The position numbers and the translations under genes are program-made. A stretch of DNA of 62,953 nt, filler included, from Neolecta irregularis DAH-3 (taxonomy: Eukaryota), in assembly GCA_001929475.1 (NCBI GenBank). It is 6 parts of 6 records of this genome, joined end to end, with 100 filler letters (N's around TTAATTAATTAA, not from the genome) between each part and the next. Parts side by side here need not be neighbours in the genome. Positions count along the whole stretch, not along the records: positions 1 to 16,119 come from LXFE01000996.1; 5 more parts are not named here. The stretch is one strand, 5' to 3'. Positions 10,471 through 60,736 of this stretch are shown here, piece by piece (the stretch's first letter is position 1; each line of letters starts with the position of its first letter). Below the pieces are notes generated by a model. The model was not told the origin of the DNA. It made no database searches and worked only from the letters and a program-made list of their open reading frames with translations.

Positions 10471-13400
10471 ATGAAGCGAGTCTATCGATATTTTGATGAA
10501 CCAGAAAGTGCTACTATATGCAAGTCCGATAGCGAAATGGCCATTGAGGCATCAATAAAAAGCGAGTCAGCGAGCCTCAACTCCTTTGAAACAGATGAGG
10601 ACTACGATCTCGACATCTTCAATAAGTGGCTTGACGAGCCATTCGATGATGAAGAACTGGATCCAACTTATGTCGACGAAGAAGGAGCTGGGGAAAGTGA
10701 TGGATCTGGAGACGAGGAAGAGAGAACAGCGCGGAGAATCGAAAGCCGAAAATACCAGAAGAATCTTGAAAATGTCAAGTTTAAAGTCCAAATCAAGAAT
10801 GAAGACGACAACGCAGGGGAGCAAGATGTGGTCGAGGAGGACAAAGATGCTTGGCCTATTGAGGTGGGTTGTCAAATTCTTTGTTCGTTTTAAGGATTCT
10901 AGGATAAATCAGAGTCTGCGCGATCCGGATCATTTGCGATTTTGCCGTCCTTTCGAAAATATATACAGGTCCTTTGCAAATCCATTTGGAACTCTCATCT
11001 CATTTCATTTCTAGGAAGAGAAGGACCGCGAAAGTGCAGCTAATCGAGATTCCACGTCACCTGTTCAGCAGCCCAGTAATTATACTTCGGACCCACCACC
11101 TGACACAATATTTGTACCTATTTTCTTCTTTTTCTTTTTTAGAAAAGGAAGTATATTAATATTTAGTCTTGCACAGAGCGTCAAGGGACTTTGCAATCTG
11201 AACAACGAACCGATGGTCCGCCTCTCCATCGGCGAGGGCGAATTCAGTATCGCAGAAAACCGGGAAAACCGCCGGCAAGGCTTGAAGAGCTGTTTCGGGT
11301 ATATCGAATATAAAGAAAATTTTAATTCATAGATTCCTGGACTTGTTTCTGCTACGTTTATCCCAATCAGGCGAGCCAGAGGAGATGTAGAACCAGACAA
11401 TGACAACCGGCCGCAGGAACCACGAGAACGGCCTCCAAAACGCCAAAGGGTACTCACAAAGGAAAATGATGTTCGAAGCGCTGATGTTCAGACTAAAGCT
11501 ACCACTCCTGTAAATCCTTTGCTCGAAACTGTGGATGATATTGATGATTGGCAACAAGTCGACTCCTATCGCCCATATGAGATTGGTCAATTCTGGGCAA
11601 TCGATAATATTATAGTATTTCAAGTCCTTGGACTATATACAAGGGAGGAGGAAGGGATGGAAATCCTTGCTGCTAGGATACAACTTTATCTGCCATATTT
11701 CCGTATTTTGAACGACAACCTTCACAATGATCCCAAGGAAGTATGTGAAATCAGCCACGACGATACTCCGGTATACCTTCGAATTGGTCATTATGTTCCA
11801 GAAAAAGTTCATGTAACATTTCTCCCGTGGCATGATGAAAATCCATCCAATCAGGATGGTCCGTATAAATGTCGATGGAAATATACACCAGCTGATCGAT
11901 GTTTTACATATACTGTTCCTTGTACAGATAGCTTTCGTCTTACAGCTGGAAAAACACCTACAGTTGCTGATTTTTTCGCTGGAGCGGGTGGTCTTTCAAA
12001 AGCTGCTGCCGAAGAGGGATGCAATATAGAATATGCTGTCGAAAAGGACTCTGACGCATCAAATGCATGGCGGGAAAATGCAATCGCTGATCGAAGGGCT
12101 AATTTCGCTGCGGCTTCCGGGCAGATTTTCAACATGCCAATTGAGAATTACGTCGAAAGTCTGTTGACGAAAGAGATCGAGATTAAACATGTCGACATTC
12201 TGCTTTTCGGACCACCCTGTCAGGGATTCTCGAGGGCAAATCCAGGAGGTATGAACGATACTAAAAACCGAAACCTGGTCTTTTACATTGCACAAACCGT
12301 GTTTCTTATCAAGCCAAAGTACATCATGGTCGAAAACGTGCCTGGGATCCTAGATGCGCCTGGAAAGTTTTACTTTGAGTAGGCACTATGATTTTGAACA
12401 TCATTGATGTTATAGAGCTATGCTTAAGGATCTGTTACAGCTTGGGTATGCTGTTTCATACAACATCCTTCTAGCCGCAACATTTGGCGATCCTCAAGTG
12501 CGCTATCGAGTTATTCTGGTTGCTTCTGCCCCAGGGTATTTACATCCGTATCAGCCATGCGCCCATATCACCAATACTAATGAGTTCAATACCGTTCACA
12601 GGTAGTCTGGTTCTGTCTGTTTGTAATTTCTCATACTCTTTAGAGTCTTGGAAGGTTTAAGCGCAACAACTCGAAATCATACGGCAGATCATCATCCTTA
12701 TTTATACCCAGATTGGATTTATATGAACAAACGGTACCTTCGCCTCTCTATACATCCTCAACAGCCTGCAACTACTCTTCGAGCTGCACCTACGGATCGG
12801 TGGCGGTGTCTACGAGTGATCCGTCCGAATCCAAGGGCAAACGCCCAAATCCGATTACTTACACCACGAGAAGCTATAATGATCCAGGGATTTAGTCGAA
12901 AGTTTCACTTAGAAGGTTCCTATGCTGCGCAGTTCCGTCAGGCGGGTAATGCGGTGCCACTTGGCCTTGGACGAGCTGTTATTAAATCAATCATAGATGC
13001 ATTCCGACGCAATGTCAGTGGTGCTGTTACTCCCTTTGGACGTATGATCGAGGTTCAAGGAAGGTTACCGCGTTTTGATCTCGAAGATGATGGCCGAGAG
13101 GATCTAGATATCCCACTAGTTCATCCCCGCTTGCGAATAACTCAGGACAATGAGATTGAATATCAGATTAAGGACTTGCCCAGTCTTGAGGATGAATCAA
13201 AAGCAGTGAAAGATCATGAACAAAGGATTGATCAATTCATTGTCCGAGTCCCTTACACTATTTTTGTGGAGCCAATAGCAACCCCACAATCGGAAGAATC
13301 AGGATCTGAAGACACTTTCATCCAGGAGCCTGACACTGATGAGATTGCCGAGAGATTTTCGGGTAATGATCCTAATACGCAAGAGATATGGTGTGTAGGC

Positions 13401-13511
13401 ACACAAACGTGGAAACCAAAGGGTGCTTTCAACAAGAGACAGCAAAGGTTGAGGGAGGATAATAAAGCTAAATGTGAAGCGTGCCTGAGAAATGAAAGAA
13501 GACATCAGTAG
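10471..13511 (+). CDS. DNA (cytosine-5)-methyltransferase, RID/Masc1(DNMT4)-like, with BAH-like domain and C-terminal Stc1-like zinc finger (~929 aa)
   Basis: Exons 10471-10863, 10903-10968, 11015-11113, 11167-11298, 11333-12378, 12416-12601, 12644-13511 splice in frame via GT-AG introns. Motifs: I DFFAGAGG, II AVEKD, IV GPPCQGFS, VI MVENVPG, VIII PQVRYRVIL, IX RLLTPREAIMIQGF, X QFRQAGNAVP. Confidence 0.93.
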
Positions 13512-13573: not shown

Positions 13574-14801
13574 TCAAGCAACATCTGAAATTCCTCCTGC
13601 CAGAATACAATAACTGCATTCCTTCTCAGCCATATCTGGACTATCCAGAAGCTTTGCCACCCTTTCTTCGCCTCTTCCCTTCCTCAACATTATTCTAGTA
13701 GCACTGGCGTGCGCAAGGACATGCCCTCCAACAGGCTTCTTGTCGTTCGATGCAAACATCAAAGAAGCTCCAGGGTCAGATTGAACCTGATTTGTAAGGA
13801 ACACTGCAACATTGAACTCCTCGCTCATTCTTGAAAGACGACTCAACATAACATTGAGTTTCTGCTGCCTTTCTGAAAGTTCCCCTCGACCAGAATAATC
13901 GACTCGGAATAATGCCATGATTGAATCTACGATAATCAACTTGTAAACGCCCTTCTCTTCAGTAAAGGTAGTTGACAGACGGTTTATCAGATCCAACTGA
14001 TGTTCAGAATTCCAAGCTCGACCAACAACGATATTTTCCAAGGCTTGTTCAGCGTCGACACCGAAACGTTCGGCAATGGCTCGGATACGGTCCGGCCGAA
14101 ACGTTCCCTCTGTATCTATATATGCAACTTTCCCTTCTCCACCTCCCATCTCTTTTGGGAGTTGAGACGTGACACATAGAGTGTGACACAACTGAGTCTT
14201 CCCGCATCGGAATTCTCCATACACTTCGCTGATTGACATCGACATGATACCTCCTCCAAGAATTGCATCGAATTGCTTGGAGCCGGTGGAGATCGAGATA
14301 ACCCTCCGACGAGCATGAGATATCGTGGAAGCGGTAGAAAATCCAGCAGGCTAATGTCAGCGAAGAAATAGATGAATGGAAGTTACGCAGAGCTTTGATG
14401 CGGCTTCCTTTAACTTCTCCACCTTGGCCTCACTGAGCCCTTTAATCTTGCCGAGATTACGACGAGTGACCATTTGGACGGCTGTCACAGTACAGATTCC
14501 TGCAGCTCTCAGTTTTGAGATGTCGGAAGCATTAATTCCTGGTATATTTCAGCAAATGTGGAATGTATTTGATGAGCAAGGAGATGGGATTTCAATAGCC
14601 CACCTAAATCTTCGATAGTGTTTGTAGCACGACGGGCTCCCAGCACCAGTTTGAAAGAAGAGAACTTGCTATTGCTTCATTTAATTGGATTCAAGCCCTA
14701 TAACAGGCCACGAAAAGACTACCTTGGTTTTGAAGTTCTTCGATCTCGTAAAATAGTTGATCATCATCATCACCGTAGTCGGAAGTGGAATCACCTATCA
14801 T
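13574..14801 (-). CDS. DMC1: Meiotic recombinase Dmc1
   Basis: Exons 14801-14723, 14538-14387, 14350-13574. [21 protein letters not shown]; Walker [28 protein letters not shown]; Dmc1-type [37 protein letters not shown]. Confidence 0.96.
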
Positions 14802-23169: not shown

Positions 23170-24289
<1,120 letters not shown>

Positions 24290-24349: not shown

Positions 24350-26576
24350 ATGCCGCCCTCGCCGCCCTCGCCGCCCGATCCCACCGGTGCGCCGGCTGCA
24401 GACCCACTGGATGTGTGTGCTGTGTGCGCGGATTCTCTTGCTGCGCAGCGCTTTGTGTGGATCGGCTGCAGCGTGTGCGGGCAATGGTACCACGCTGCGT
24501 GTGTCGGCATCGAGGACTGCGCGCAGGTCGCCCAGTACCATTGTCCCGCCTGCGAACCGCTCCATGGTCCTTCTGAACGTACGCTGGATCTGCTGGCTGC
24601 GCCGTGCTGAGCCGCCAGTGCACAGGAGAAGCGCGCGCGCGCCGCCCAAAGTCGACTACGAGAGCCTCAACCAGGGCACGCCCGTCGTCGGAAACCGCCA
24701 TCTCCACGTCCGCCACTTTGGAGCCCGTGTCTACGCCCCAAAGCGCTTCTGCAGACTGCACGGCCACCAACTGCATGCCTGGGCTCGCGACTCGTACGAC
24801 GAACCCGTAGTCATCCCCAGAGAGTGGAAAGACTCGCTCGACATGACGATGCCCGAGCATCTGACAGTCGCACAGGTCGCTCACGCGGTCGGTGACGACG
24901 CTCCCGTAGAAGTCATCGGTTGCCTCCCCTCAATGGCCCGCGCTGACATCGCAGATGTATCTTCACAGCGAGAAGACAAGAACTGGACTCTCGGGCGCTG
25001 GAGAGACTACTTCAACACCCCAGTAGGCAAGAGAGACAAGATCAGAAATGTCATCTCTCTCGAAATAAGCCAGTCGCCGCTCGCAAAGGTGATCACGAGA
25101 CCAAAATTCGTCAGGTTCGTTTCTTGCGTGATTCCTCGTTTAATCTCCAGGGACATGGACCTCGTCGACAAAGTGTGGCCATCGCGACTCCTCAAGATCG
25201 GCGATTACCCGCACGTAAAACTTTATTGGTGTGCCACTACTTTCCACTCTTCTAATCAAACAGCCTCATGTCCGTCCAAGACTGTTACACGGATTTCCAC
25301 GTCGACTTTGCTGGTTCATCCGTCTTCTACCATATCATAAATGGTGCAAAGACATTCCTCTTCATCCCGCCTACTGAATTAAAAAAATACACCTCATGGT
25401 GCAATGATCCTGATCAAAACAAGTCTTTCTTCGCCGACCAGGTCAAGGAAACTTACCGCATCGACTTGACAGCCGGAGACACAATGATAATTCCAACGGG
25501 ATGGATCCATGCAGTTTACACACCAAAAGACAGTCTCGTCATCGGCGGAAACTTTTTGTGCCACAACCTTTCAGGACAAATTAATGTGACTAAAATTGAA
25601 CGAGAAACAAAAGTCCCGAGGAAATTTCGGTTTCCCGGGTTTGAGAGAGTTTGTTGGTATGCTTGTCATTGGATCGTACGACAAGCCATCGAGGACGGCA
25701 TTACATTTGCTGATCTTGACAAATTAACTACTAGTGGTGAATCTTTTCACGGATATCGACGATTAGATCTTGAGGCTCTCGCTTGCTATCTCCACGAACT
25801 TGTTCTTATTGCCCGTGGTCAAGTCAAAGGATTTAAAAAAACGGACATTCGCGATATTAAAGCGTCCGAAGCTTGCTCTGCTGAAGAACTCGTCGAACGA
25901 CTCTGCATTCTTCTCTGGAATAAGCAACCTGTATGGTGGAAAGGATCCGGCAAACGACAGTGGGCTACTGGTTGGAAAATGAAGCTTGGCGAGGTAGAAG
26001 CAAAGGATACTTCAAGTACTGTGGTCCCAGAAAACAAGCCAGCTGAAAACTTGCCAATTGCTTGGACCAAGACGTCTACTCTACACATTGTTCATCCATC
26101 GCTCGATGACGAGGTAGCTGAAATCGAACAGGTAACTTCAACAAGTGCCTCTGTGAAGATTCCTGCCAAGTCACCTCAATCTCCGTCACTGGATGCTAAA
26201 GTTCGGCTCGCTGAAAGTCCAACTAGGTTATCAAAAAGAAAGATAGATGAGCCACCTGACGGGCCGGACAATGAATTAATGCATAATTATCCCAAGCGAA
26301 AGACTACGGAAAATGGAAACGTTAAAACCCAGTCAACTGTTTCTACAATTCAAACTACTACAGACGACAATCGCTGTGGTTCCTCGGTGAATTTTGCAGA
26401 AATTTCCACGTTTCCTCCACAAAAGCCCTCTAGTAAGACTCGATTGAATCGTCATCAGCCTCACACCAACCCTATCGGTGTAACTAGTACACCTGCTTAT
26501 GACGCCAAATATCATAATATCCTTATTCAGAAACATGAATCGTCTTCCGATCTTAGCGATCTTTCGGACACAGACT
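24350..26576 (+). CDS. JHD1: PHD + JmjC histone demethylase (Jhd1/KDM2-like), 3' end lost in gap
   Basis: PHD finger CAVC..WIGCSVCGQWYHAACVG..YHCPAC; JmjC NVISLEIS, YTDFHVDFAGSSVFYH, IPTGWIHAVYTP..LVIGGNFL. Confidence 0.92.
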
Positions 26577-26676
26577 NNNNNNNNNNNNNNNNNNNNNNNN
26601 NNNNNNNNNNNNNNNNNNNNTTAATTAATTAANNNNNNNNNNNNNNNNNNNNNNNNNNNNNNNNNNNNNNNNNNNN
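26577..26676. other. Artificial contig linker
   Basis: N / TTAATTAATTAA / N, 100 nt; the genes on both sides are truncated. Confidence 0.98.
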
Positions 26677-29600
26677 GATCTGCAAACCCTCGAGACGATC
26701 CCCGTGTCGCTCTTCCGCCACGCCGCAGACATCGTCTCGCTCAACATCTCCAAGAACCTGTCGCTGCAGCTGCCGTCGGACATTCTGCAGTCGTGCGTCA
26801 ACCTGCGCGAGCTGCGCTTCGCGTACAACGAGGCGCGCCGCCTCATGTCCAACCTGTCGCTCGCGCAGAAACTCACCCACCTCGACGTCTCGAACAACAG
26901 GCTCGAGGACCTCGGCAACGCAGGCCTGCACAAGATCGAGACCCTCGTCGCGCTCAAGCTGCAGAACAACCGGCTGTCCGCGCTGCCCGCGGCCTTTGCC
27001 GACCTCCGCCACCTGCGCTCGCTCAACATCTCCACAAACAACTTTACAGAGTTCCCGCTGCCCGTCTGCAGCATCGCGTCCCTCGTCGACCTCGACGTGT
27101 CCTTCAACAGGCTCGAGTCGCTGCCCGCCCAGGTCGGCAGCCTCCACGCCCTCGACCGCCTCATCGCAAACAACAACCGCTTCCAGGGCGCCTTCCCAGA
27201 CACCATGCGCAACATGCAGTCGCTGCGCGAGCTCGACATCCGCTTCAACTTCTTCACAAACATCCAGGTGCTCGCGGAAATCCCAAACCTCGAGAGCGCG
27301 TACTGCGGAAACAACTCGGCGACCGCCTTCGACCCCAAACTGCTCCGCCTCAAGACCCTCCATCTCTCGAAAAACCCAATCACCCAGTTCTCCATCGCAT
27401 CGTCCACCCAGAGCCTCGTCTTTCTCACCCTCACCTCGGCCAAGCTCGCAGTCATCCCCCCCGCCGCCTTTGACAACATGCTCAACCTCGAGCGCCTGGT
27501 CCTGGACAACAACCAGCTGTCGACCATCCCCGCCGAGATAGGAAAACTCAAACGCCTCCAGCACTTCTCCTGCATAAAGAACCTGCTGTCGTCCCTGCCC
27601 CCAGAAATCGGCCAGCTGACCAACCTAAAGTCCCTCGACGTGCACAACAACAATCTCAAAGTGCTGCCCGCTGAAATCTGGCAGCTGACAAATCTATCCT
27701 TTCTCAATGCATCCTCAAACGTCCTCTGCTCGTTTCCCGCGCCCCCTCCTCAAGGCTCGCTATCCTCAACCGGCACCGCCACAACAACGCCCTCGGACGA
27801 AAAGATCCCCGACCCGCAACGAAAGCAAAGCGTCGTTTCCTTCTCCAGAATGAACACCACAATGGCCGCTACCCTGCGCACCTTGCTGCTCGGCGATAAC
27901 CGCTACTCAGACGACGTCTTTCAGGAACTCTCTGTCCTTACTGAACTGCGTGTGCTAAACTTGTCCTTCAACGAGATCATCGAAGTGCCCCCCTCAGCAC
28001 TCGGCCGCTTGCAGAATCTCGTCGAGCTCTATTTGTCGGGAAACGAACTAAACAGTCTTCCCGCAGAGGACTTTGAACGTATCCCCACCCTGCGCATATT
28101 GCACGTAAACGCAAATAAACTACAAACACTCCCCGCAGAGCTCGGAAAGATTCGCCGGTTGCTGGTCTTGGACGTTGGAAGCAATTCGCTAAAGTACAAT
28201 ATAAACAATTGGCCTTATGACTGGAACTGGAACTGGAATTTGGATCTCGTATATTTAAATATGTCGGGCAACAAGAAACTCGAGATTCGGCCCAGTATAT
28301 CCGTCAACCCTGCTGCTCGCGAACGCAATTTATCCGATTTCACGGCTCTGACTAAACTCCGTGTTCTCGGCTTGATGGACGTTACCTTGATGGTTTCTTC
28401 CCCTCCAGATCAGACGGAAGACCGGCGGGTGCGTACTACCAGTTCCGAGATCCACAATATGTCCTACGGGATGGCAGATTCACTTGGTCGTGATGAGCAT
28501 CTTTCAATCATCGATCTTGTCGTGCGTCGCTTTCGAGGAAACGAACACGAGGCCGTTTTTGGACTGTTTGACGGACAAATCAGTTCCACCTGTGGAAACA
28601 AGATTTCTCATTTTCTGCAGGAATCGTTTACTACCTATCTTTCTGCCGAGCTCTCTCGTCTGCGCAAGGAAGAAGGCATTCCAGACGGTCTACGCCGAGC
28701 TTTTCTCAATATTAATCGAGAGATGGGTCTAGCTGCTGGTGCAGGATTCAATGCAAAGAAAGGAGCTCAGCCATTATCCCAGCAGCGACCCTCCTTGGTG
28801 TCGATGCTCGGACCCGAAACTCTCACATGTGGTGCTTCCGCGCTGGTAATTTACCTGGTGGGCAAAACAATGTACGTCGCCAACGCCGGAGACGCCGTTG
28901 CGCTTCTTTCAAAAACAGACGGTGAAGCCAAACTGCTTTCTGAAAAACATCACGCCGCTTTGGAAATTGACAGGATTCGCGAAGCGGGCGGTGTCGTCTC
29001 GCGAGATGGGAAAATTAACGATATTCTCGAGTTGTCTCGCGCAATCGGGTATTTCCATCTCGTTCCTATAGTTCAAGCTGCACCGTACATCACAGAGATA
29101 ACTTTATCCGAGCAAGACGAGTTTGTCATCTTGGGCAATCGAGAGTTGTGGGAATACATCTCTTATCAAACGGCCGTCGATATCGCTAGAACAGAACGAG
29201 AAGATCTGATGCTTGCCGCGCAAAAACTGAGAGATTTCGCAATCACTTATGGCGCCAGCAGTAAAATCATGGTCATGATCATCGGAGTCGGAGACCTCTT
29301 TCACAAAAAGTCAAAAGCACGTATTCGAAATGCCTCTGCTCAGCGCGGTCTCTCTGGAAGCTCTGCCATCGAAGAAGAATTTATTTTGAAGAAGAAACGC
29401 GGAAAAGATGAACTTCCAGCTGACTCTGTATATCCCCAGTGTACTCCTGCTGACATGTAGGATCTAGCCCGCTTGGAAAGAGAAGTGCCCCCGCCTGTCG
29501 GAGAACTAGCCATGGTCTTTACCGATATCAAAAATTCAACAGCACTATGGGAAACAAATTACATCGCCATGCGCTCCGCCATAAAAATTCACAATTCTCT

Positions 29601-30632
29601 TATGCGCCGCCAACTTCGTATTATCGGCGGCTATGAAGTCAAAACTGAAGGCGACGCCTTCATGGTTTCGTTTCCAACTACTTTTTCAGCAATGCTGTGG
29701 TGTTTTACCGTTCAAACCCAACTTCTTCTCGCGGACTGGCCACAGGAAATTCTCGATTCTCCCCATGGAAAAGAAATATTCGACCCGGTATCGGGAAACG
29801 TCATGTATCGCGGCATCTCCGTCAGAATGGGTATTCACTACGGATCGCCGGTATGTGAACCAGACCCAATCACTCGTCGCATGGATTACTTTGGACCAAT
29901 GGTAAATCGGGCTTCCCGTATCAGTGCCGTTGCCGACGGTGGTCAAATTACTATCAGTTCAGACGCTGTTCGCGAAATTAAAGCGCTAGAGACTCTTCTT
30001 GACGACGGAGATGAAGAAATCGACCAAGACGAGTTTGGAGATGAAATACTACTCGCCTCGACTAGACGCGATATGAGCATGTTGAAAAAGATGGGGTTCG
30101 GTTTAGTCCCCATCGGGGACAGAAAGTTGAAAGGTCTCGAAAATCCAGAGTTTATTTCACTAGTGTATCCCAAATATCTTGGTCCGCGGCTGGAAATGGA
30201 CCTGTCTAGTGCTGCTAAACCAATTGTACCGGCTGGCCCAGAACAGGTCTTTCAGTCGGAGCAAAGATCAATCGATCTCAGAGACCTTCGCCACCTCGGT
30301 CTATTATGTCTTCGACTAGAGAGATTATGTTCAGAATATCCGCTGCCAGGATCCACACAGTCAAAAATGGAACTTCTTACCGGCCCGCTCGTTATCAAGA
30401 TCAAGGAGGACGAAGACAACATGGTGCTTGCAAAAGTGTTGGAAAACATCGTCACTCGAATCGAGGTGCCTTCTTGCCCGCACTTGAACTAACAGCACAG
30501 AACAGTATCTCCACTTTGTTTCTGCGTAGTGTTGCAGAGGCTACTTTAGGCAACCACGACACTTGTGATGCGGATTTCGTAGAACTTCTCAGCAAACTCA
30601 AGTTGTATCTGTCTTCTGGAGCCACTCTATAA
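26677..30632 (+). CDS. CYR1: Adenylate cyclase (LRR, PP2C-like and cyclase domains), 5' part missing
   Basis: Long LRR array, NWPYDWNWNWN, PP2C-like domain, catalytic VFTDIKNST..GGYEVKTEGDAFMV..RMDYFGPMVNRASR. Confidence 0.97.
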
Positions 30633-45298: not shown

Positions 45299-46802
45299 TT
45301 ACAAGAACAGAGTCACGCTGACACCTAATGGATTAGCTTCGATTAGTTTTCGAAACTTACCCAAAATACATACGCAAATTCCAAGTGTCAAGGCGGCAGC
45401 CGCAACCTTGTCGTTTTGCGTAGCCGGATCGATTTTAGTTTTATGCCCACTGGAGGATGTTCGACCAGCATTCACATCACCTATACTGGTAGCTCCAGTA
45501 TTCATTGCCGAAGGTAATGATGCATCTTTAGCTAGACACGATGTTATCGTCTCAAGGGCTGCAATCGTTCCACCCACTCCAGAGTGACCATCAAATTTTC
45601 CCAAAGTCCAATTCATACCACAAGTCGTACCTGATCCTCCAGTGCACGCTTTCCCCGCAGCAACAGCTGAGGTACGGAGAACACTGAAAATTCTTGCAGA
45701 TAATTCAGGTACGAGTTGGGCTGTATATCCGAGATTCCGAGAAAGATATCCCTTGAACGAAATTTGATCATCATTACAAGTATTATAGGGCTCGCAAGCT
45801 GGCTCGTTGACAATGGCTTCCTGATAGAAGAATGATGAGATAGCTTTGCTAAGGAGCCCCTTGATAATTTCAAGCCATACCGGAGATTTATTGTACTGTT
45901 TTATGAGAGTCGCTTCTAAATCAGTTCATACGTAGTCATACATGAACGCTGCGCCACCTAAGAGCATTGCATTATTGTAGCTCCATAGGATCGTCGAGTT
46001 CTTTACAAAAGCACACGCCGGAAGATTTCCTCCATCATAAATGTTCAAAGTGTCATCCATGAATTGAATTTTTCGCATCCATTGGAAAGTCTTTTCTGCC
46101 CATTGTGCATATGTGTCGTTTTTGGTATAGCGAGCCAATCGTGCATTCAGTTGAAAGAAGATGCCGTTCGAAATCGAGTTTTTATAAGTATACCCATGAT
46201 TGAAGGCAAAAATCTGCCATCTTAAACCACCCCCGCAATTCTCATCGTCCCACCTTTCCATTTGTCCATGAAGAGCACCTTGAGCTAATGCAAGCCATTG
46301 GGGCTGCCCTGCCGGAAGGTCTGGGAAATTTCTTTCCGCTGCAGACATTGCAGCAAGAGCCCAAAACCCCTGATCATCGTTCCCTTCAGCAAGAGTTTGG
46401 TTAGGTGGCAGGAAATCTCGATTCGGACCGATCTGATGGAAAATTGCCTGAGTAACGATTTCATCATAAGTCGTATCACCTGTATAATTTCGGTAGTCAA
46501 TCCATGCCTATTATTTGTGTAAGCGTCGCAGGACAGGCTCATTACATTTGTTGCAGCACCGGCCAGCCACCAGTACGTTGGATATGGGAAAAGTCCAGGA
46601 ATTTGTCCCGGTTCATCCCCATGATAACTCGAGCGCAGCTCTGCAGCAATAGTAGATGCAGCTCTCTTCAAAGACTCTTCACCATATAAACCAGACTCTG
46701 AAGTTTCAGGCAATTACCTTTAGAAGAAGGATCGACATCAACGGCAGCGCCATATCCGAACAGGAGTAAGCTGTGTAAAAGAGCGGACAACGCACAAACC
46801 AT
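45299..46802 (-). CDS. GH76 Dcw1/Dfg5-family GPI-anchored mannanase, copy A
   Basis: Signal peptide, [45 protein letters not shown], hydrophobic C-terminal GPI signal. Confidence 0.93.
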
Positions 46803-47270
46803 GTTTTCACCACAAAATATAATGGGAGTATGGATATAAGGTTCAAGACTGAGGATAGCTTTCGTAGTCCTTACTTTCTCCTAACAAAAGATTATCGACT
46901 GCGTGAGATGTATCACGAAAATAACTAGCCTGCCTCGTGCATATTTTTATCTGTTGGAGTGACTTCTGAAGCTCTGGCCTAGCAGGGCCCCTTTATAATT
47001 AAAACGAGAAATACTTCGTTTATTGCGAAAATGATGAGAGAGATCTTTCAGACGCAGGCTTTCATCAGTGAAAAAGAGCTTGACAGACCCTGAGATTGAT
47101 GTGCAAATTTCAAAGAATGAAAGAATGAAAGTTAGAAAATGCATTTTGCTTAGTTCAAAGGCCAATATCACGCCAAAACAAAAAGAAAACGCTAGAAAGT
47201 CTCCTTAGATCCGTGAATAAATATAAATAGTTGCAAAAAAGAAAACCAAGTAAAAGATTACCTTTAGTAT

Positions 47271-48782
47271 TCAAATCACTAACCAAGCACCCATTCCTAT
47301 ACAACATTAGTGTCTGCTTGATTTAGGCCAAGTACGTACCAAAAGTACTTAGTGAAACCAGAATGGTTACAAATACAGCGCTAAATTTCCCAGCTGTCGT
47401 GGGTGGTGGCTCTGTAAGTGTATGACCACTCGAACTCGTTGTGCCGGCATTGACATCTCCTGTACTTGTACCGCCAGTTCTCGCAGATGATGGCGAAGAT
47501 GCGTATTTCGCAAGAGGTGCCTGTATCACTTCAAGAGCCGCAATCGCTTCACCGACTCCGGTATGCCCATCAAATGTCCCTTTAGTGTAATCGTTCCCGC
47601 AAACTGTGCCCGTTCCTCCATTACAGCATTTCCCAACAGCAACGGCAGATGAGCCAAGCACATTAAAGATTTTATCTGCTAGAGAAGGAATGAGCTGTGC
47701 GGTATAACCCATATTTCGAGCGAGATATCCCTTGAAAGAGGTTTGATCGTCGTTGCAGGTTTGTTCTGGCTCGCAAGCTGGTTCGTATACGATAGTCCCG
47801 CTCGAAAAGAACAAAGAGATTGATGAATCAAGAAGTGCTTCCACTCTGCTGAGCCATATGGAGGATTGGTTTTGCTGACCAATTTAGAGGTTTAAAAATT
47901 ATGACAAAAACGTACGTAAGTGTACATGAACGCAGCTCCACCGAGATACATTCCAGTATTATAGGTCCATTGGATGCGATCAAAACCGGTGATACAGTCG
48001 GGAACGTCGGCTCCATCATAAATAATATATGTCGAAGTCAGGAACTTGACGCTGGTGGTCCAGTTATACGCCTTCTCCGCCCATTGTGCATATGTGTCAT
48101 TGCCGGTATACTGAGCAAGCCGAGCACCGAGCTGGAAGAAGATTCCATTCGATATTGAATTCTTGTACCCGTATCCATTATTAAAAGCGAAGATCTGCCA
48201 GCGAAGTCCACCACCACAGTTCGCATCGTCCCATCGAGTCGCTTGGCCATTAAATACAGCCTGAGCAAGAGCTAGCCACTGGACACCGGTCGATGGCGGG
48301 TTGGGGAAATTGCGTTCTGCTGCCGACATTGCAGCGAGTCCCCAGAATCCCTGATCGTCATTTCCTTCAGCCAGTGTTTGATTGGGCGGTAGGTAATCAT
48401 TATTCGGTCCCACTTGAAATAGCATTGCCTGCGTCACAATAGCATCATACGTGGAATCTCCGGTATAATTACGATAATCGATCCACGCCTACGCTGTTCA
48501 GCTCTGTGAATTTGTGGTCATCCTTACGTTCATGGCAGCACCAGCTTGCCACCAGTAGGTCGGATATGGGAAATTTCCTGGGATCTGTCCTGGTTCATCG
48601 CCATGATAGAATACTCTCAAGCCAGCTGCGTTTGTAGTAGCACCGCTTTTCAAGGATGCTATCACAATAAATGACAACTCGACACCGGGCCTTATACCTT
48701 GTGAAGTAGGATCTACCGTAAAGGAATGACAATATGATAGCAGCGTAAGACTGTAAACGAGCGAAACATGAGGGACGAGCAT
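47271..48782 (-). CDS. GH76 Dcw1/Dfg5-family mannanase, copy B
   Basis: [37 protein letters not shown]; same intron positions as copy A. Confidence 0.93.
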
Positions 48783-49346
48783 TTTTGATATCCAAGAGGT
48801 TGCGCAAGTCAATCGCGATTGTAGTTTAGGCAAGTCGGAAAGGGCCGGAGACGCTTGCCTTTCTTGGCAGTTCTACTCCGATAGGGGCAAGTATTTGAAA
48901 TAGTGGCTATTTATATAATATATATGCTTGTCTGGATTCTGAAATGGAAGATTTAGTATGGCAGCGAAGGAGAGTTTTGCTAAACAGCGATGTTGGTACA
49001 ATACTATTCAAGTAATTGGCATTTGCGTTCTATAACCTCAAAAAGCACTGGATTTGATGCATATTGGGCTTTCCTATTCTCGCAATCGCATGATGGAACA
49101 CTATTGAGGTATTGAATAAATAGAGTTTTTGGGTGACAACGAATTGAGCTCAATATATACAAACACAGTGAAGTGGCGATACTAACCACTTCCACATTAA
49201 AATACGAGAATCATAAATAGCATCAGAAGACTGCCAATAAAAATCCTAGAGCGATGATGATCTATCCGAAATTTCAACATAAAACGCCGAACGAACAAAA
49301 AGGCCTTACATCCCCTGTATTTTTACTGAAATTCAAACAGCTTTAC

Positions 49347-50854
49347 TCATAGGAGTAACCAGACTTCGCATGCTATCTAATGAGCATCTGGCTAGATTGC
49401 ATAAATTACCAAACATCAAAATCCCAGAGACAGCCGTCAAGATAATTCCACCAGCCTTATCCTTGGTCGTTACGGGTCGATTAGAAATTGATGAACCAAG
49501 TCCTGAAGTTGGGATGGTTCCGGCTTTTGAATCTCCTTTGCTCGTTCCTCCGGATTTCGCAGTGGCAGGAAATTGGGCATACTTGATCAAATTTGCCTGA
49601 ATCGTTTCCAACGCAGACAACTGTTCACCAACACCCGTCTTTCCATCGAATGTTCCAATTGTCCAGTCCATACCACATGCCTCTCCAGAAGCTCCCCCAG
49701 TACACGATTTTCCAGCTGCTATGGCACTGCTAGCAAGAATAGAGAAAATCTTTTCTGATGTTTGTGGAGCCATTTGAGTTGTATATGCCATCCACCGAGA
49801 GAGGTATCCCTTGAAAGAAACTTGGTCGTCGTTACACGTTCTAACAGTTTCGCAAGCTGTTTCTTGGACCGTGCCATTTTTCGCAAAGAAGAGTCGAATG
49901 GCAGAGTCAAGAAGACTTTCAACGGCTGTTCCCCACTGAGTAGCACCGTTCGTCTATAGCGTCAGCATCAACCTCGCTGAAAGGGGTGTACATAATGATA
50001 CATGAATGCAGCCCCAGCAAGAAATACGCCATTATTATACGTCCATTGAATTCTATTGAACGGGGCACAGGTAGGAGTATGTGCTCCATCAATGATATTC
50101 CAATTCTTATCAATGAAACCCACCGCTTGCACCCAGTCCCATATTTTGATGGCCCATTGCGCGTATGTATCATTTCCAGTGTATACAGCTAAGCGAGCTG
50201 CTAGTTGAAAAAGGCATCCATTTGAAATTGCATTTTTATAATCATACCCATTATTGAACTGGAATACCTGCCACCTCAGACCTCCGTTGCAAGAGTTCGG
50301 ATCCCAACGCTGAGACTGCCCGTTGAATACTGCCTGAGCAAGAGCTAGCCACTGCGGTTGGTTAGACGGTGGATCTGGAAATTTCGATTCAGCGGCGGTC
50401 ATAGCTGCAAGACCCCAAAACGCCTGGTCATCGTTTCCAAGTGAAAGTGTTTGATTTGAGGGCATGAAATCTCTATCAGCACCGGCTTGCCATACCATTC
50501 CATTAGAAACAATCGAATCGTATTGCGTGTCATTCGTTAGGCGGCGATAGTCAATGAATGCCTAGGGGCAATCAGAATTTGACATGGGTAGGAGCGTTGC
50601 GGTTACATTCATGGCAGCTCCAGCTTCCCACCAATATATTGGGTACGGGAATAAACCGGGAATTTGACCCGGCTGATCTCCAGTATATAAATTTCGCAGC
50701 CCAGCGGCAGCTTTTGCAGCACTTGTCAACAGAGATTCTAATAGTAAGCAGAGGCGCCCAAATCATAATTCTTGCTCTGATTTGTAGGATCCACATCAAA
50801 GGCGAAAGCAATACTTAGCAGGAAGAATAGCAGATTTGGCGCTCCCTGCAGCAT
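49347..50854 (-). CDS. GH76 Dcw1/Dfg5-family mannanase, copy C
   Basis: [37 protein letters not shown]; first intron is GC-AG (50775-50738). Confidence 0.92.
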
Positions 50855-54525: not shown

Positions 54526-55245
54526 AATACACAAAAGAGGTATTGGTAACTGTTGATCAATAGATAGGACTCCAAAGAGTAGATTCTATAGGAATGGATG
54601 TATAACAAAGGGTCTTTTCCTAGGCAGCCCTAAATCCCTACAGTTAACAGTTACCCAATAGACCAAGTTCAACCCAGAATACACAGATGTAAAAAGGTGA
54701 CCTCAAAATCTACTTACTAAAGCCAACTGAGTATACTGGCAAAGTTTTATGTGTAACAAATGGAACTTTTATTATCTGCACAGAAGGGAAATGTTCTTCC
54801 CCTTCATATATCCTGAGGTTACCATATGATCGATTTTCGCCAGGACCAATGGAATGTCCTTTTTCCACCAAGCACACTCTAAATACAAAAATATTTCAAA
54901 GTTCCCCAACTACCACCATATTTTCCCCAATATCTCGCAATCCGAGTAAGCAAGGTATAGCAAACTTTACACAAGCATGTAGAGCACATTGAGGCGGACA
55001 TCTTTTGTCTATAATTCATATGGTGGATCGTCGTTGTTAAGGAACCGTTCAGGGTTTAAAGCATGAATTTCTCTTTTTTTCACATAAAATGTTGGCGTTC
55101 AGCTTAATCGATAAGGTAAGGCATCCAAATCTTTATACGTCCGGATAGAGGTAGTCGAGCTGAGTATTGCCGTCCTATATTTGCCAAGCTGGATTGAGGT
55201 GGTTAATATGTTATTGAGCTTTAAAGCAAAAGTTTTCCATAAAAA

Positions 55246-55553
55246 TGTAAACAGCTAAGATCCACGATAGTTACACAAACAAGATCACGTTACACAAGGC
55301 ACACTAGCGGATCTCGTGTGACACTCCAGGCAGTGTTGCTGAGCAAGCAACAATGAACAAGTCTATTATCTCAGAAGATACAAAGTGAGAATAGTAGGTA
55401 TGGTGGAGGTGACAACATTATATACTAAAGAAAGGTCCCTAATTAACATACGTTGTGTGACGTTGCACAATGTTATACCACATTACACAACATAGTACGA
55501 TGTAGGACAAAGTAAAGGAATTGTAGTAAGCAGATAGAGCTTATGTGCTTACA
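55246..55553 (-). mobile_element. Solo LTR (308 bp) of the neighbouring Ty3/gypsy family
   Basis: TGTAA...TTACA termini; near-identical to 60590-60736 and 55650-55851; flanks AAAAA / CAAAA (one mismatch from a 5-bp TSD); no PPT or internal sequence attached. Confidence 0.85.
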
Positions 55554-55649
55554 CAAAACCACCTCAATAGGAGAAGGTTATCTCCAATCATCCATAACCT
55601 GCATTGATGATTGTTCAGGCAATAGAGGGCNNNNNNNNNNCCATCATAC

Positions 55650-58600
55650 CTATTATCTCAGAAGATACAAACTGAGAATAGTAGGTATGGTGGAGGTGAC
55701 AACATTATATACTAAAGAAAGGTCCCTAATTAACATAAGTTGTGCGACGTTACATCAACATTGCACAATGTTGTACCATGTTACACAATGTAGTACAATG
55801 TAGGACAAAGTAAAGGAATTGTAGTAAGTAGATAGAGCTTATGTGCTTACACTCCTCCCCTCTTTCTCTTTTTGAAGGGAGTTATGATAATCAATGATCA
55901 GTGTAGCATCAACATCATTTTTGTGTACCTATTGATTGTCAGAGTGTGGCCATCCTACCCATTTGATTAGGTATTCCTGTCTTCGATATCAAGTTCTGTG
56001 GTCCAATATCTGTTCCACTTCATAGTGATCTGTGACAGGGATAACAGGGCCAGGGCATGAAAATTCTCTTTCTGGGAAAAGTGTAGCATCATTGGCAATA
56101 TATGGTTTCAACAGTTTAGCATGGAAAGTGGGGTGTAAACCATTTAGTTCCAGGGACAAGTTAAGGACATATGTTGAGGTACAGGGGTTAACTACTTTGA
56201 TAGTGAAGGGTCATAAGTAGCACTGGAAAAATTTGGTAGCTCAATTTTGCTGTTTTAGGAGGTGACATATATTTTTAGAGTCTAACATTACAGAATCACC
56301 AATGGCGTAATTGGGTTCCTGTCTACAATTTCTATTTGAATATATCATCTGTTGAGTTCGAGAATGTACAAGGTTGTCCTGAGCAATTTCATTGTAGAGA
56401 TGGATCTTGTGACACCAATCCTCCGCAGCTGGGACCGGAGAGGTGTCACTTACAATTTACGCAAAAGGTGTGGACGAGTGCCATACAGTAGTTCAAAGGG
56501 GGAGAAACCAGTAGAGGCGGAAAGCAAGTTATTCATCACCATCTCGACTTCAGGTAAGGCTTTGACCTAATTGGATTGCCTCGCATTGACATGGTAACGA
56601 ATTGCAGTTTTATTCTAATGTTCCAATACTCCGTCTGTCTCAGGGTGAAAGCATGTTGACATCCAGAGTATGATCCCGATTTTGGTGTGAATCTCCTGCC
56701 AAAAGTTTCATGTAAATCGGGTGTCGCAATCAGACACTATTGATGATGGTAACCCATATAAACAATACCATGATCAATAAATGATGTTGGCGATAGTTGA
56801 GGCTGAATCTGTGATGTGGGTCAGATGGATCTGAACAGTATTAGTGAACCGTTCAGTAATAACTAGAATAGAATCATATCCTTTGGAACGAGGCAAAGAC
56901 CCAACGAAATCCATCACTATATCGTCAAATCGGGCAATCGGAATGGGGAGCGAATGTAGGAATCCGGCCGGAGGTTGTGTCAAAGATTTCAAATGCTGAT
57001 ATTTATAGCAGGACCTTACGTATTGTTCAACATCTTTACTGAGTCCTGCCCAGTAAAGATCATTGCAGATCGCGCGATACGTCTTATCAAAGCCATAATG
57101 GCCTTGACAATAGTGGTAGGGGTGGAGTAATCGGGAGTGGATAACTTGTTGAGTCAGAATACAAAGACTATGACTGATAAAAAGAAGTCCATCCCTCTTT
57201 ATATAGTTTTCAAATCGTTCAGGGTTAGCATTTGCTGGTCAGAGAACTGGATCATCCTCATATGTGACAATAATCTTCTTAATTTCCAGTGGCGAAATTT
57301 GTAATGAGGTAAGAGTAGAGGAAACCTTGCCTCAACCACCTTCTCCCAGCCCCTCCTGCCTGACTCGTCCCCTTAATTCGTCTAATGTGCTGATAATTGG
57401 CATAACGTCTGGAGAATCTTTCTCTGTGCTGTAGTTCGGTGCTGTTTCCAGATTATCCTTGTACCGAAATGGAGTTGATCATGTCAGATTGTCCTCTTCA
57501 TCTAATTGATTGTCAGACTCGCTCTGTCTTTGTCCTTTCTTCATTGAATTCATAGAGATTGCTGAGAGGCTCATTTCCGACGTTGTATCCCCGAATCAAG
57601 GCCTATAAGTAGGAGGTCTCCCTTCTCTTTCCATCTACTGCATTTGCCCCTCTTGACCCAATGGTTCCTCGAAGCATGATAAGGCGTCTGCTGCGATGTT
57701 TACTTTCCCTTCGATATATTGTATATCGAAGTCAAACTCACTCAAGAAATCGAGCCAGCGAAGTTGTCTTCAGGATTAGTGGCTCTGGGTTTTCCAATGT
57801 TTTAACTATTCGTGATTAGTAAGTACCACTAATGGAAAGCCAACAAGGTGATGCTGCCATTTTTTGAGTGCAAATATTACCTCTAGCATCTCCTTTTCAT
57901 GGGTTGGGTAATTTGCCTTGGCCGGTGAATACTGGTGACTCTCAAATGATGCCAGGACTGCCGAGCACCAGTCATGTCCCTGTGCTATAATGCACCCGAT
58001 TCCCAGGTCACTGGTATCAGTAATCACTCATATCGGTTCATCCCATTGTTCATTGACAGGTCATAACCCAGGCATACTAACTGCTAGATCCTTTATTTTT
58101 TGAAAAGCTGCCTCCTGAGCCAATCCCCACGCAAACAGAGTGGCTTTCCTCGTCAATTTCATCAAGGGTGCTGGGTAAGTTGCTAAGTTGGGAATAAACT
58201 GACTTACCCAGTTAATGAACCTCATGAATTGCTGGACCTGCTTAATCGTCTTCAGCTGTGACCATCTTGCGATCTTGTCTACTTTCTCTAGATCGATCGT
58301 GATTCCCACATTTGATATTACCTTGCCTAGAAACTGTAATTAGTCGGCAAAGAGAACCGACTATGCTGCAGATGCTATGATTCCATTTTCCCGCAAGATG
58401 TTGAGAATTGCCTGAATGTTTTCAAGATAGTCCTTTACTGAATTAGACCATACCACAATGTCATCCAAATAAACTGGCCAACAACGCCCCAAATGATCCC
58501 TTAACAGGTAGTTCATGAATTGTTGGAATGTAGCTGGCACGTTGCAAAGGCCCTGCAGCATTACTGTCCACTCGTAAAGGCAGAATGGGGTTTTGATCAC

Positions 58601-60736
58601 AGTTTTTCATATGTCCTCTTCTTCGACTGGTAATTGATAGTAGGCATTGTTAAGATCTAACTTTCCTAGTATTATTGCCTTGGCTGCCAATTCGATTATC
58701 TCTTCTTGATGTGGCAGTGGTGTTCGTTTTTTACCGTGTTGGCAGTGAGTGCTCAATAGTCCACCACAACCCGAGGAATGGCACTGGGATCTTTTTTACT
58801 AACCATGAACACCCCAGATGATATCTCACTTGACCATTCGTATAGCCATCCTGCTCGACTATGTTACGCGAGAAATTGCTGCATGTGCGACCAATATCTC
58901 ATTGGGACTGGGAGTAGTCGGCCATTGATCTTAGTTGAATCGTCCATGAGCTGAATCCTATGTTTTGGGACACTCTTATATGGACGTCTATTCAGTAGAG
59001 ATGAAGAAAACACATTAGGGTACTCAGCAAACAATTTATTACTAAATTGTATATACTTTTCTGCAGTTGGTATCTCCCCTTCCTATTTTACTTCCAGATT
59101 TGCTACTCTTTCAGTAAAGATGATTGTTCGGTGCTCTTGGTCTGGATAACACTTGTGACCTCAGAGAAACTGTGTCCCGAGAATCACGTCATAACTTCCC
59201 AAGTGCGCGATTTTGAATGAGATCCGTACCATCGTGATGCCCACATCCAACAATCTAATTGGAGTTTTGATCATGTGCGTTATATGTGTTGCAGTAGCTT
59301 CTAACTCTTGTCGCAATTGACTCAGCTTCTCTAATTCGTATAGATCCAGGCCTCCTGCATGTTTCTGTAACATTGTTTCTGAGATGAAGTTCGACTTGGA
59401 TCCTGAATCGATCAGGGTGAGAGTTTCGATATTTCCGATCTTAATCGCCATTGTCAACTGCTCAATCGACTGACCCTGAGTTGAGTCAGGAGTCAAAATC
59501 ATAATTGAAGTATCCATGTCAGATGGTATTAACGATTCATAGGTATCTTCCAACGTAATCTGATGAATAGATTCCTGAGTCTCTCAAAAACTGTCCAGTC
59601 CTTCTGGCATTTCAATTGCCGCCTTCGCCCTATCATTCGGAACACCTGAGCGTCGAAACGGGTTGGAATTCAGCTTAGATATGTCCTTTATATATCTGTG
59701 TTCCGCGGATCCAGAAGTCGTTGCCCTGGAAGTGTTTTTACCCTGGTTTGATAAATTGGATTTACCAGGACAATCTCTAGCCCAGTGTCCTGCATTAAGC
59801 TTTCTGCAGTGCAGGCACCCATTATTGTCAGTAATGTACTGGAGCTCCTTATCCGAAAGCTTGGATAAAGCTGGTTTCCATCCTGGTTTAGTACCTGAAG
59901 GATCAAATCCTGATGATGATTGCAGATTTCGTCTTAGTTGTGATAATATGTTGTCTGCTTTCTCCCAGGTTCTAACGATTTCGTTTAATGTGACGTTTTC
60001 GAGTAATCCGGGTTCCACCTGTAATCTCAAATCGAGATTCATGCCCATGAGAATAGTTTCACATGCAAACTCTTCTTACATCTTATCTTTACCAATCTCT
60101 GTCCATAAACCTCTGACTTCAAGAGCATAGTCAGTAAATGATTTACTTCCTTGCTTCATGGATCACCATTCCTGGATTTGTAATTTTTGATAGTTAGATG
60201 GTAAAAAGTTATCTTTTAGCTCTGTCTTGAATTCATCATATGAAAGATTGTCATCTCTGACACTTTCATACCACTGTGTTGCATTACCTTCTAGGTAACT
60301 TGCTGCCACTTCTGTCTTGAGTGATTCCGGGACACCTGTTAACTTCATGTATGATGAAATTGACCCAAGCTAGGATTGCACTACTGATGGTGTACAATCC
60401 CCCTTGTATTTGGATGGGCTATCAACCTTGAATGATGGCTGCATAAAGAGTAATTTCGAGTCTTCTGACATGTCTTCTTGTTCCTGTTCTATTTCCTTGT
60501 CTTGTCCTGTTATCTTGTCCTGTGTCTTGGTTTTGTTTCGAGTTTGCATTTGCATTTTATGAGGTAGCTTATTGAATTGTTGAAAAAAGTGTAAACAGCT
60601 GAGATCCGCGATGGTTACACTAACGCGATCAGGTTACACAAGGCGCACTAGCAGATCTCATGTGACACTCCAGGCAGTGTTGCTGAGCAAGCAACAATGA
60701 ACAAGTCTATTATCTCAGAAGATACAAAGTGAGAAT
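55650..60736 (-). mobile_element. Degenerate Ty3/gypsy chromovirus LTR retrotransposon (gag-PR-RT-RH-IN-chromodomain)
   Basis: 5' LTR 60736-60590 (cut by gap), 3' LTR 55851-55650 (truncated), PPT 55868-55852. Zn knuckle CLHCRKLNAGHWARDC, protease LIDSGS, RT YLDD, RNase H YPTHEKEML, integrase HPETDG, chromodomain YEVEQILDH..YLIKWVGW; many stops and frameshifts. Confidence 0.95.

Follow-up and report, generated by a model that had tools for sequence, protein, structure and literature searches.

Introduction

DNA methyltransferases (DNMTs) of the RID/Masc1 type are described as lacking a BAH domain, as being absent from Basidiomycota and as having a premeiotic role (PMC7862722). Together with the diatom DNMT4 enzymes they have been presented as a family that is, at best, moderately supported (PMC9998398). 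Fission and budding yeasts are reported to be without enzymes for 5-methylcytosine (5mC) in DNA (PMC7862722). According to the accounts available, Saitoella and Taphrina carry DIM-2- and RID-like sequences and show no repeat-induced point mutation (RIP) (PMC7882544), T. deformans encodes a DNMT4 (PMC10538959), and DNA methyltransferases were detected in the proteomes of Neolecta irregularis and S. complicata (10.1101/2023.05.12.540427). A further enzyme of interest is DnmtX of Kwoniella, described as a BAH plus DNMT protein with de novo activity (10.1101/149385, PMC11185503) and called an orphan DNMT (PMC10538959). The gene studied here lies at positions 10471-13511, on the plus strand, of a 62,953-nt stretch of DNA of N. 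irregularis DAH-3 (GenBank assembly GCA_001929475.1), made of six joined parts and referred to below as the window. It encodes a cytosine-5 methyltransferase of 929 amino acids (aa), deposited in GenBank and designated P0001 in this work. Our literature search for Neolecta combined with DNMT, DNA methylation or RID yielded one relevant source, a preprint on Pneumocystis (10.1101/2023.05.12.540427), and no classification of the protein was found in the material that it returned.

The analyses reported below suggest, with a probability that we put at roughly 0.6, that P0001 is a DNA cytosine-5 methyltransferase belonging to a loose DNMT4-type assemblage, that it falls outside the RID clade, and that its nearest kin are the protein P0121 and a group of proteins from Agaricales. 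The description that suits it best is that of an orphan enzyme of DNMT4 type, this term being taken widely, and not that of a RID/Masc1 enzyme.

Gene Structure and Catalytic Domain

The gene is native to the nuclear genome of N. irregularis and is interrupted by introns. Its largest open frame (11372-12379) is 100% identical to P0001, which bears the NCBI name 'Modification methylase SinI', and the seven joined exons translate letter for letter to that protein, with a single stop located at the end. The coding parts and introns, all on the plus strand, are given next; PF00145 is the C5-methyltransferase family of Pfam and pLDDT stands for the predicted local distance difference test of AlphaFold2.

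10471..13511, +, whole methyltransferase coding region: seven exons, 929 aa, stop codon TAG at 13509-13511, exact match to P0001
10471..10863, +, exon 1, residues 1-131, acidic N-terminus: 0 Pfam families, pLDDT <50
10903..10968, +, exon 2, 22 codons (predicted, GenBank model): flanking introns of 39 and 46 nt, skipped in the six-exon alternative
11015..11113, +, exon 3, 33 codons: common to both gene models
11167..11298, +, exon 4 (predicted, GenBank model): 11177-11298, in another frame, in the alternative model
11333..12378, +, exon 5, residues 231-578, N-terminal extension and motifs I to VI: PF00145 E=2.4e-20, profile positions 3-117
12379..12415, +, intron 5, 37 nt, GTAGGC..TTATAG: homology-supported, its excision making the PF00145 match continuous
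12416..12601, +, exon 6, residues 579-640, with motifs VII-VIII and the first part of the target-recognition region: PF00145 E=1.5e-07, profile positions 124-165
12602..12643, +, intron 6, 42 nt, GTAGTC..CTTTAG: homology-supported
12644..13511, +, exon 7, residues 641-929, second part of the target-recognition region, then motifs IX and X, then a tail of 160 aa: PF00145 E=5.2e-10, profile positions 229-323

All six introns of the GenBank model are of the GT..AG type and measure 34-53 nt. PF00145 matches the open frames of three separate exons in the correct order, and introns 5 and 6 are considered supported because this match becomes unbroken after splicing: on the spliced protein it spans residues 441-758 and, continuously, profile positions 3-323 of 324 (E=4.4e-46). 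It is also the only Pfam family detected in the whole protein (E<=0.01). A six-exon model of our own, which would give 891 aa and has introns of 151, 63 and 72 nt, was set aside in favour of the seven-exon GenBank model, the sole reason being that the 34-53 nt introns of the latter resemble the homology-supported ones of 37 and 42 nt.

The motifs of the catalytic domain, in which the S-adenosylmethionine (SAM) binding and catalytic residues are found, are located as follows. Invariance refers to an alignment of 50 eukaryotic DNMTs.

11969..11992, +, motif I, DFFAGAGG, SAM binding: G447, G449 and G450 invariant
12209..12232, +, motif IV, GPPCQGFS, with the catalytic Cys526: P525 and C526 invariant
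12326..12346, +, motif VI, MVENVPG, ENV kept, with Glu564: E564 invariant
12495..12509, +, motif VIII, QVRYR: R608 and R610 invariant
12510..12851, +, target-recognition region of 100 aa (short), residues 611-710: split by intron 6 and including TLRAAPTDRWRC
12852..12893, +, motif IX region, RLLTPREAIMIQGF: E717 invariant, motif read as PREAIMIQGF
12945..12959, +, motif X, GNAVP: read in the sequence

The 11 columns that are invariant in that alignment are all retained in P0001, and the reading frame runs over the 330-aa catalytic part with neither stop nor frameshift. With motif I for SAM, Cys526, Glu564, R608/R610 and GNAVP all in place, the core is that of a complete, conventional enzyme. 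In the AlphaFold2 model, obtained with a 50-row alignment, the core folds as a C5-methyltransferase: residues 440-770 mostly exceed a pLDDT of 90, nearly all other residues stay below 50, and the top Foldseek matches of the model are MET1, DNMT1, DIM2, ZMET2, M.HaeIII and M.HhaI, with E values of 1e-18 to 1e-23. The first-pass annotation of this DNA, which had described seven exons coding for ~929 aa, an acidic N-terminus, all the C5-methyltransferase motifs and a target-recognition region of ~95 aa, is borne out on these points. The exons equal those of the GenBank model, motifs I, IV, VI (ENV), VIII, IX and X were all read directly, residues 1-135 contain 43 D+E vs 17 K+R, and the target-recognition region measures 100 aa between R610 and R711.

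From this complete set of motifs, P0001 is probably an active, SAM-dependent DNA cytosine-5 methyltransferase. To our knowledge, no methyltransferase activity has been demonstrated for RID itself, and an intact gene could also belong to a protein that does not methylate DNA, either by acting on RNA as DNMT2 does, or by being unexpressed or in decay. We regard this as very improbable for P0001, given the catalytic and SAM motifs intact over 330 aa of uninterrupted frame, and the scores of the DNMT2 chains in the Protein Data Bank (PDB), which reach 28-32 bits vs 64 for DNMT1.

Outside the core, the acidic N-terminus is probably disordered. The C-terminal tail, 160 aa long, has no known domain, is mostly predicted with pLDDT <50 and ends in a helix (residues 902-928). 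Its last residues (…KCEACLRN…, window positions 13440-13508) correspond in the alignment to the beginning of a Cys-rich tail that extends for ~70 residues further in P0121; the Neolecta frame ends there, and the neighbouring DMC1 gene leaves no space for another exon.

Nearest Relatives

An exhaustive HMMER search with the main exon as query against 1.84 billion representative proteins retrieved 3354 proteins at E<=0.001. Below 1e-30 there was only P0001 itself, the next value being 6.5e-18. The catalytic domain was scored against 450 gathered proteins. References for RID/DmtA were obtained by a search with a Phyllosticta match, three of whose relatives bear the NCBI name 'C-5 cytosine methyltransferase DmtA', and those for DNMT1 and CMT by a search with a DNMT1-like match; diatom-like references were from Skeletonema and Cylindrotheca, and two Glomeromycotina rows were added. 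It must be noted that membership of the RID set was decided by homology to the Phyllosticta protein and by the three DmtA names, neither RID of N. crassa nor Masc1 of A. immersus having been identified in it, and that the label DNMT4 of the diatom-like rows comes from the diatom literature (PMC9998398) and not from named sequences.

The highest single-domain scores of the catalytic domain were those of P0121 (600 aa, encoded on a 4.5-kb contig), with 171 bits, and of proteins of Mycena galericulata (P0125, 145 bits) and Mycena crocata (P0124, 128.5 bits, and P0139, 128.4 bits), followed by Mycena polygramma P0211 (117.5 bits) and by many prokaryote-type domains at ~98-111 bits. All the named members of this nearest group are Agaricales, namely four Mycena species (M. 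crocata, M. galericulata, M. metata and M. polygramma) and Desarmillaria tabescens. In BLAST, identity to P0121 was 32% over 422 aa and to M. crocata P0139 29% over 429 aa, the alignments reaching upstream to residues 347 and 356, respectively. P0121 and the Agaricales proteins share with P0001 the ENV and PCQ motifs (PCP in P0121), a short target-recognition region (86-126 aa), a conserved block before motif I, and PF00145 as the only Pfam domain. They also share an RW-containing motif in the last part of that region, T[VL]R..P[ST]DRW.C, to which Neolecta, P0121 and M. galericulata P0125 conform exactly, the remaining Agaricales rows having the variant forms P/L-G-[NS]-RW or S-N-RW; the RID and diatom-like proteins, unlike Neolecta, have no RW-containing motif at this place. 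On the other hand, identity between P0001 and these relatives is just 29-33%, and some Mycena members, unlike Neolecta, have N-terminal extensions of ~1000 aa. In the ESM Atlas, the three best feature matches (0.90-0.91) were Ascomycota clusters with PF00145 only, which we take as a lead only, and the main exon, when metagenomes were scanned for its close relatives, gave 39 pattern matches, of which 0 were confirmed.

Diagnostic Features and Profile Scores

The ENV of motif VI is present in Neolecta, in P0121, in the Agaricales (7/7), Glomeromycotina (2/2) and diatom-like (11/11) rows, in DNMT1 (20/20) and CMT (5/5), and in 188 of the 189 remaining rows, which are prokaryote-type or unnamed. 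None of the 88 RID proteins has it; they carry EQT (43), EET (33), ENT (4), EEA (3), EEV (2), ETV (1), EES (1) or EMA (1), so that the replacement by EQT/EET ascribed to RID enzymes by the first-pass annotation is confirmed. In these alignments ENV is the ancestral state and its loss is confined to RID. Since every non-RID group has ENV, its retention in Neolecta is unremarkable and shows just a position outside RID.

The segment 'PC..D..N' that follows motif IV had been proposed as a RID-type trait of the Neolecta protein, a view that the wider sampling does not sustain. It is present in Neolecta and in 73 of the 88 RID proteins, and equally in 150 of the 189 prokaryote-type or unnamed rows, in the Agaricales (7/7) and in the diatom-like proteins (10/11), being nearly absent solely from DNMT1 (1/20) and CMT (0/5). 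Given this wide distribution, the segment counts against DNMT1 membership and not for RID membership. As regards the length of the target-recognition region, the medians were 232 aa in DNMT1 (20 rows; 192-239), 210 in CMT (5 rows), 177.5 in a DNMT1-like group with a BAH domain that includes P0087 (152-187), 136 in the 189 prokaryote-type or unnamed rows (minimum 95), 99 in the diatom-like proteins (11 rows; 93-100) and 88 in RID (88 rows). A short region such as the 100 aa of Neolecta is therefore common to the whole DNMT4-type side and to some prokaryote-type rows.

Apart from motif VI, the RID/Masc1/DmtA proteins resemble P0001 in having a single PF00145 and no RFD, CXXC or BAH domain by Pfam, besides the short target-recognition region and the D..N segment. 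The diatom-like proteins (Skeletonema marinoi, Cylindrotheca closterium and their relatives) share ENV, PCQ, the length of that region and the D..N segment. Kwoniella DnmtX, a possible relative known to us by description, is likewise a short, stand-alone fungal DNMT; it falls outside the classical classes, and its catalytic domain is directly preceded by an N-terminal module. This module is described as a BAH domain, which was undetected in Neolecta by Pfam and hhalign.

Group profiles built from the alignments scored the Neolecta domain at 218 bits (prokaryote-type, 189 rows), 192.5 (Agaricales), 184.5 (diatom-like), 172.7 (RID), 130 (DNMT1) and 73 bits (CMT). When the profiles were brought to equal size by 30 draws of 7 rows per group, with the 7-sequence Agaricales profile of 192.5 bits as reference, the prokaryote-type rows had a median of 177 bits, 2 of their 30 draws reaching 192.5; the diatom-like, RID and DNMT1 medians were 174.6, 147 and 117.5 bits, respectively. 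In a sequence search of the PDB, DNMT1 scored ~64 bits, DIM2 (chains 9bap and 9baq) 34.5 and DNMT2 28-32, and the order of DNMT1 above DIM2 was also obtained with a DmtA-named RID protein and with a Mycena protein. By these comparisons the catalytic domain is conservative, even 'generic', nearest to the Agaricales group, distant from DNMT1 and not especially near RID.

The same data bear on the possibility that P0001 is a reduced member of the DNMT1/DIM-2 type, or of the DnmtX type, which would have lost its reader domains and shortened its target-recognition region. The catalytic fold is shared, DNMT1, MET1 and DIM-2 being among the best structural matches and keeping ENV and PCQ; the DNMT1 chains are the best eukaryotic matches in the PDB sequence search, with some alignments beginning 45 aa before motif I; and the P0087 group and, more loosely, DNMT1 have a similar sequence (T.R..P..RW.C.HP) where the target-recognition region ends. 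The N-terminal block, in addition, has a beta-rich pattern reminiscent of BAH, and DnmtX offers a precedent for a de novo enzyme made of BAH plus DNMT (10.1101/149385, PMC11185503). Against these likenesses, Pfam finds no RFD, CXXC or BAH domain in P0001 (E<=0.01 on the whole protein, E<=10 on residues 244-441), the target-recognition region does not reach half the length that it has in the 20 DNMT1 rows and is well below the 152-187 aa of the P0087 group, the D..N segment is present, the DNMT1 profile is the second lowest in score, and DIM2 does not exceed 34.5 bits. The unconstrained tree, moreover, places Neolecta and DNMT1 on opposite sides of a split supported by 90/91, as shown in the next section. 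A reduced DNMT1/DIM-2 or DnmtX-type enzyme is therefore regarded as unlikely.

Phylogenetic Position

An overview tree was calculated with FastTree from 328 complete domains, 97 of the 425 domain units being excluded as incomplete. The main tree was calculated with IQ-TREE from 73 rows and 330 columns under LG+C20+F+G4 with posterior mean site frequencies (PMSF), after exclusion of five of the 78 chosen rows (P0335, P0361, P0292, P0126 and P0143) as incomplete. In FastTree, Neolecta and P0121 (0.988) stand beside the diatom-like proteins (0.866), and then RID plus Agaricales (0.096); the 88-row RID clade excludes the Neolecta protein, whose neighbourhood is the one found again in IQ-TREE. In IQ-TREE, where the values are ultrafast bootstrap (UFBoot) and Shimodaira-Hasegawa approximate likelihood ratio test (SH-aLRT) supports, all named groups are clades with support of at least 95, and Neolecta pairs with P0121 at 100/99. 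A split supported by 90/91 puts Neolecta and P0121 on a DNMT4-type side together with the RID (14 rows), diatom-like (8), Agaricales (7) and Glomeromycotina (2) rows, the opposite side comprising DNMT1, CMT, the DNMT1-like group and 23 prokaryote-type rows. Both the RID clade (14 rows, 100/98) and the prokaryote-type clade (100/97) exclude the Neolecta protein. Within the DNMT4-type side the branching order is weakly supported (37/14, 59/49 and 62/80). The grouping of Neolecta with the Agaricales, at 59/49, is not supported as a clade, and the sister position of the diatom-like proteins seen in FastTree is not recovered in IQ-TREE.

Alternative positions were compared by the approximately unbiased (AU) test, using differences in log-likelihood (delta lnL). 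Under LG+F+G4 the test rejected none of the sister relations of Neolecta to RID (delta lnL 1.2, p 0.57), to the Agaricales (0.8, p 0.50) or to the diatom-like proteins (13, p 0.33). An earlier rejection of the RID sister relation in a fast search (delta lnL 60.6, p 0.018) was a search artefact, the values just given for RID coming from the full search.

The membership of the RID/DNMT4 lineage that the first-pass annotation had suggested may thus be kept in one part and not in the other: the domain falls, at 90/91, in a loose DNMT4-type set, and the RID clade leaves it out, with the AU test rejecting none of the rival positions. The domain does not group firmly inside DNMT1/DIM-2 or the bacterial enzymes, since IQ-TREE puts it on the DNMT4-type side at 90/91, in a tree from which DIM-2 is absent. 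On the whole, the sequence data lend moderate support to the DNMT4-type placement.

Several observations weigh against this placement and must be considered together. In the AU test, positions of Neolecta on the DNMT1/CMT side and on the prokaryote side were not rejected, either under PMSF (delta lnL 7.42 and p 0.161 in both cases) or under LG+F+G4 (18.7, p 0.21, and 25, p 0.15, respectively). The two PMSF results are identical and possibly not independent, a constrained tree having perhaps been reused, and the constrained DNMT1, prokaryote and diatom trees under LG+F+G4 came from fast searches, so that their likelihood deficits are upper bounds. The trees are without sequences of DIM-2, Masc1, N. 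crassa RID, DnmtX, Taphrina and Saitoella. The broad prokaryote-type profile outscores every eukaryotic group profile, and the best PDB sequence match is a bacterial prophage enzyme, 3g7u, level with DNMT1. As to the gene itself, the four 5' introns are predicted in a region without homologues, where an in-frame alternative exists. Finally, RIP-like dinucleotide indices were found in 0 of 62 1-kb windows, a result of little weight in 63 kb with few repeats, which agrees with the published absence of RIP in the Taphrinomycotina examined, Neolecta not being among them.

Some of these points would fit an origin from a bacterial restriction-modification-type enzyme, acquired by fungi through horizontal transfer independently of RID/DNMT4 and provided with introns later. 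The top score of the prokaryote-type profile, the two size-matched subsets that reach the Agaricales score, the tie of 3g7u with DNMT1, the NCBI name, which derives from M.SinI, and the AU values for the prokaryote side (p 0.15 to 0.16) all go in this direction, as does a word-index search whose next-best matches (E 5e-22) are mainly two-domain methyltransferases, the few named ones being bacterial. The gene, however, has six GT..AG introns of spliceosomal type, two of them within the catalytic domain and supported by homology; its guanine plus cytosine (GC) content of 0.42-0.44 is native, being similar to that of the window elsewhere, and fungal genes surround it. Furthermore, the N-terminal block and the target-recognition motif are common to the Agaricales proteins, the prokaryote-type rows form a clade without Neolecta, and the bootstrap proportions by resampling of estimated log-likelihoods (bp-RELL) and the expected likelihood weights (c-ELW) exclude the prokaryote-side tree (0.044). 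We consequently hold a separate bacterial origin to be quite unlikely.

The N-terminal Block

Immediately upstream of motif I, a stretch of P0001 is conserved in its nearest relatives.

11678..11962, +, conserved block of ~95 aa, residues 346-440: common to P0121 and the Agaricales proteins

HMMER and BLAST alignments start at residue 346/347 with P0121 and at 356/358 with M. crocata P0139. This region had been taken in the first-pass annotation for a BAH-like block, and its pattern is beta-rich in appearance. A Pfam search of residues 244-441, even at E<=10, gave no family, BAH included, and comparison by hhalign of the block with an alignment of ten Pfam-delimited BAH domains gave a probability of 0.6% (pairwise E 0.09), the RID N-termini reaching 1.7% against the same alignment. 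The full AlphaFold2 model has a pLDDT <50 over residues 261-418, and a model of the block alone, with six relatives aligned, had a mean pLDDT of 39.9, too poor for a fold search. The presence of a BAH domain in the block is therefore unsupported, and it must be noted that the alignment behind this analysis is very shallow.

Two of the relatives, M. crocata P0139 (1427 aa) and P0262 (1297 aa), have an extra N-terminal region of ~900-1000 aa. In it the two proteins have conserved stretches in common (for example G.HGEGMKVGI.AL) that correspond to no Pfam family at E<=0.01.

Putative Function and Significance

P0001 would methylate DNA through the standard covalent mechanism, in which the catalytic cysteine attacks C6 of the base (Cys-C6). 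It would be a stand-alone enzyme of de novo type with repeats or transposons as its substrate. Its time of action could be near meiosis, as for Masc1/RID, and its targeting might depend on the N-terminal block or on partners rather than on BAH, RFD or chromo domains. A broader and more tentative proposal, which we find doubtful at present, is that Neolecta, P0121 and the Agaricales proteins may represent an unrecognised ancient fungal family, stand-alone, retaining ENV and with a short target-recognition region, an N-terminal targeting block of its own and the RW motif. Such a family could be of the still-methylating ancestral type from which RID/Masc1 came, active de novo on repeats around meiosis in Neolecta.

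A conventional DNMT in the earliest-diverging multicellular lineage of ascomycetes bears on the enzymes that the ascomycete ancestor possessed, and the same gene bears on how the odd RID/Masc1 enzymes arose. Both evolutionary questions are touched because fission and budding yeasts are without 5mC enzymes and no RIP has been observed in the examined Taphrinomycotina. The value of the finding is limited, as the protein was already in GenBank, DNMTs of Neolecta and Taphrina had previously been reported, and the catalytic domain alone cannot resolve deep branching. What is new here is the link to a group of Agaricales, a lineage reportedly without RID/Masc1-type enzymes (PMC7862722).

Genomic Context

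The genes flanking the methyltransferase are ordinary fungal ones, coding for DOCK, a histidine phosphatase, DMC1 and COG4. DMC1, the meiosis-specific recombinase, is encoded at 13574-14548 on the minus strand, tail to tail with the methyltransferase and with ~60 nt between the two frames; its frame scores 378 bits to yeast Dmc1, 346 to human DMC1 and 287 to RAD51. This adjacency fits the premeiotic role of Masc1/RID and is suggestive, although it gives no evidence of co-regulation. At 10-13 kb downstream there are two genes for chromatin modifiers, a Sir2-family deacetylase (23297-24286, plus strand) and a JmjC/JHD demethylase-type gene (25256-26629, plus strand), whose nearness is probably a coincidence.

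Repeated sequences in the window include three glycoside hydrolase family 76 paralogues in tandem (45302-50561, minus strand) with 66-68% nucleotide identity, whose mismatches show no transition bias (166 transitions vs 195 transversions in the longest pair). There is also a retroelement remnant at 55241-60736, with a frame for an integrase zinc-binding domain at 56777-57238 on the minus strand. This frame lies between direct repeats of 152 nt (55241-55392 and 60585-60736) that are 92.8% identical, differing by 8 transitions and 3 transversions, and a second pair of repeats is found at 55363-55554 and 55650-55852.

In the segment 26001-28000 the GC content reaches 0.52-0.56 and the GC skew is strongly negative (-0.286); long frames are numerous on both strands and overlap one another. 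The segment corresponds to the leucine-rich-repeat (LRR) part of an adenylate cyclase gene with LRR, PP2C and cyclase domains (26629-30489).

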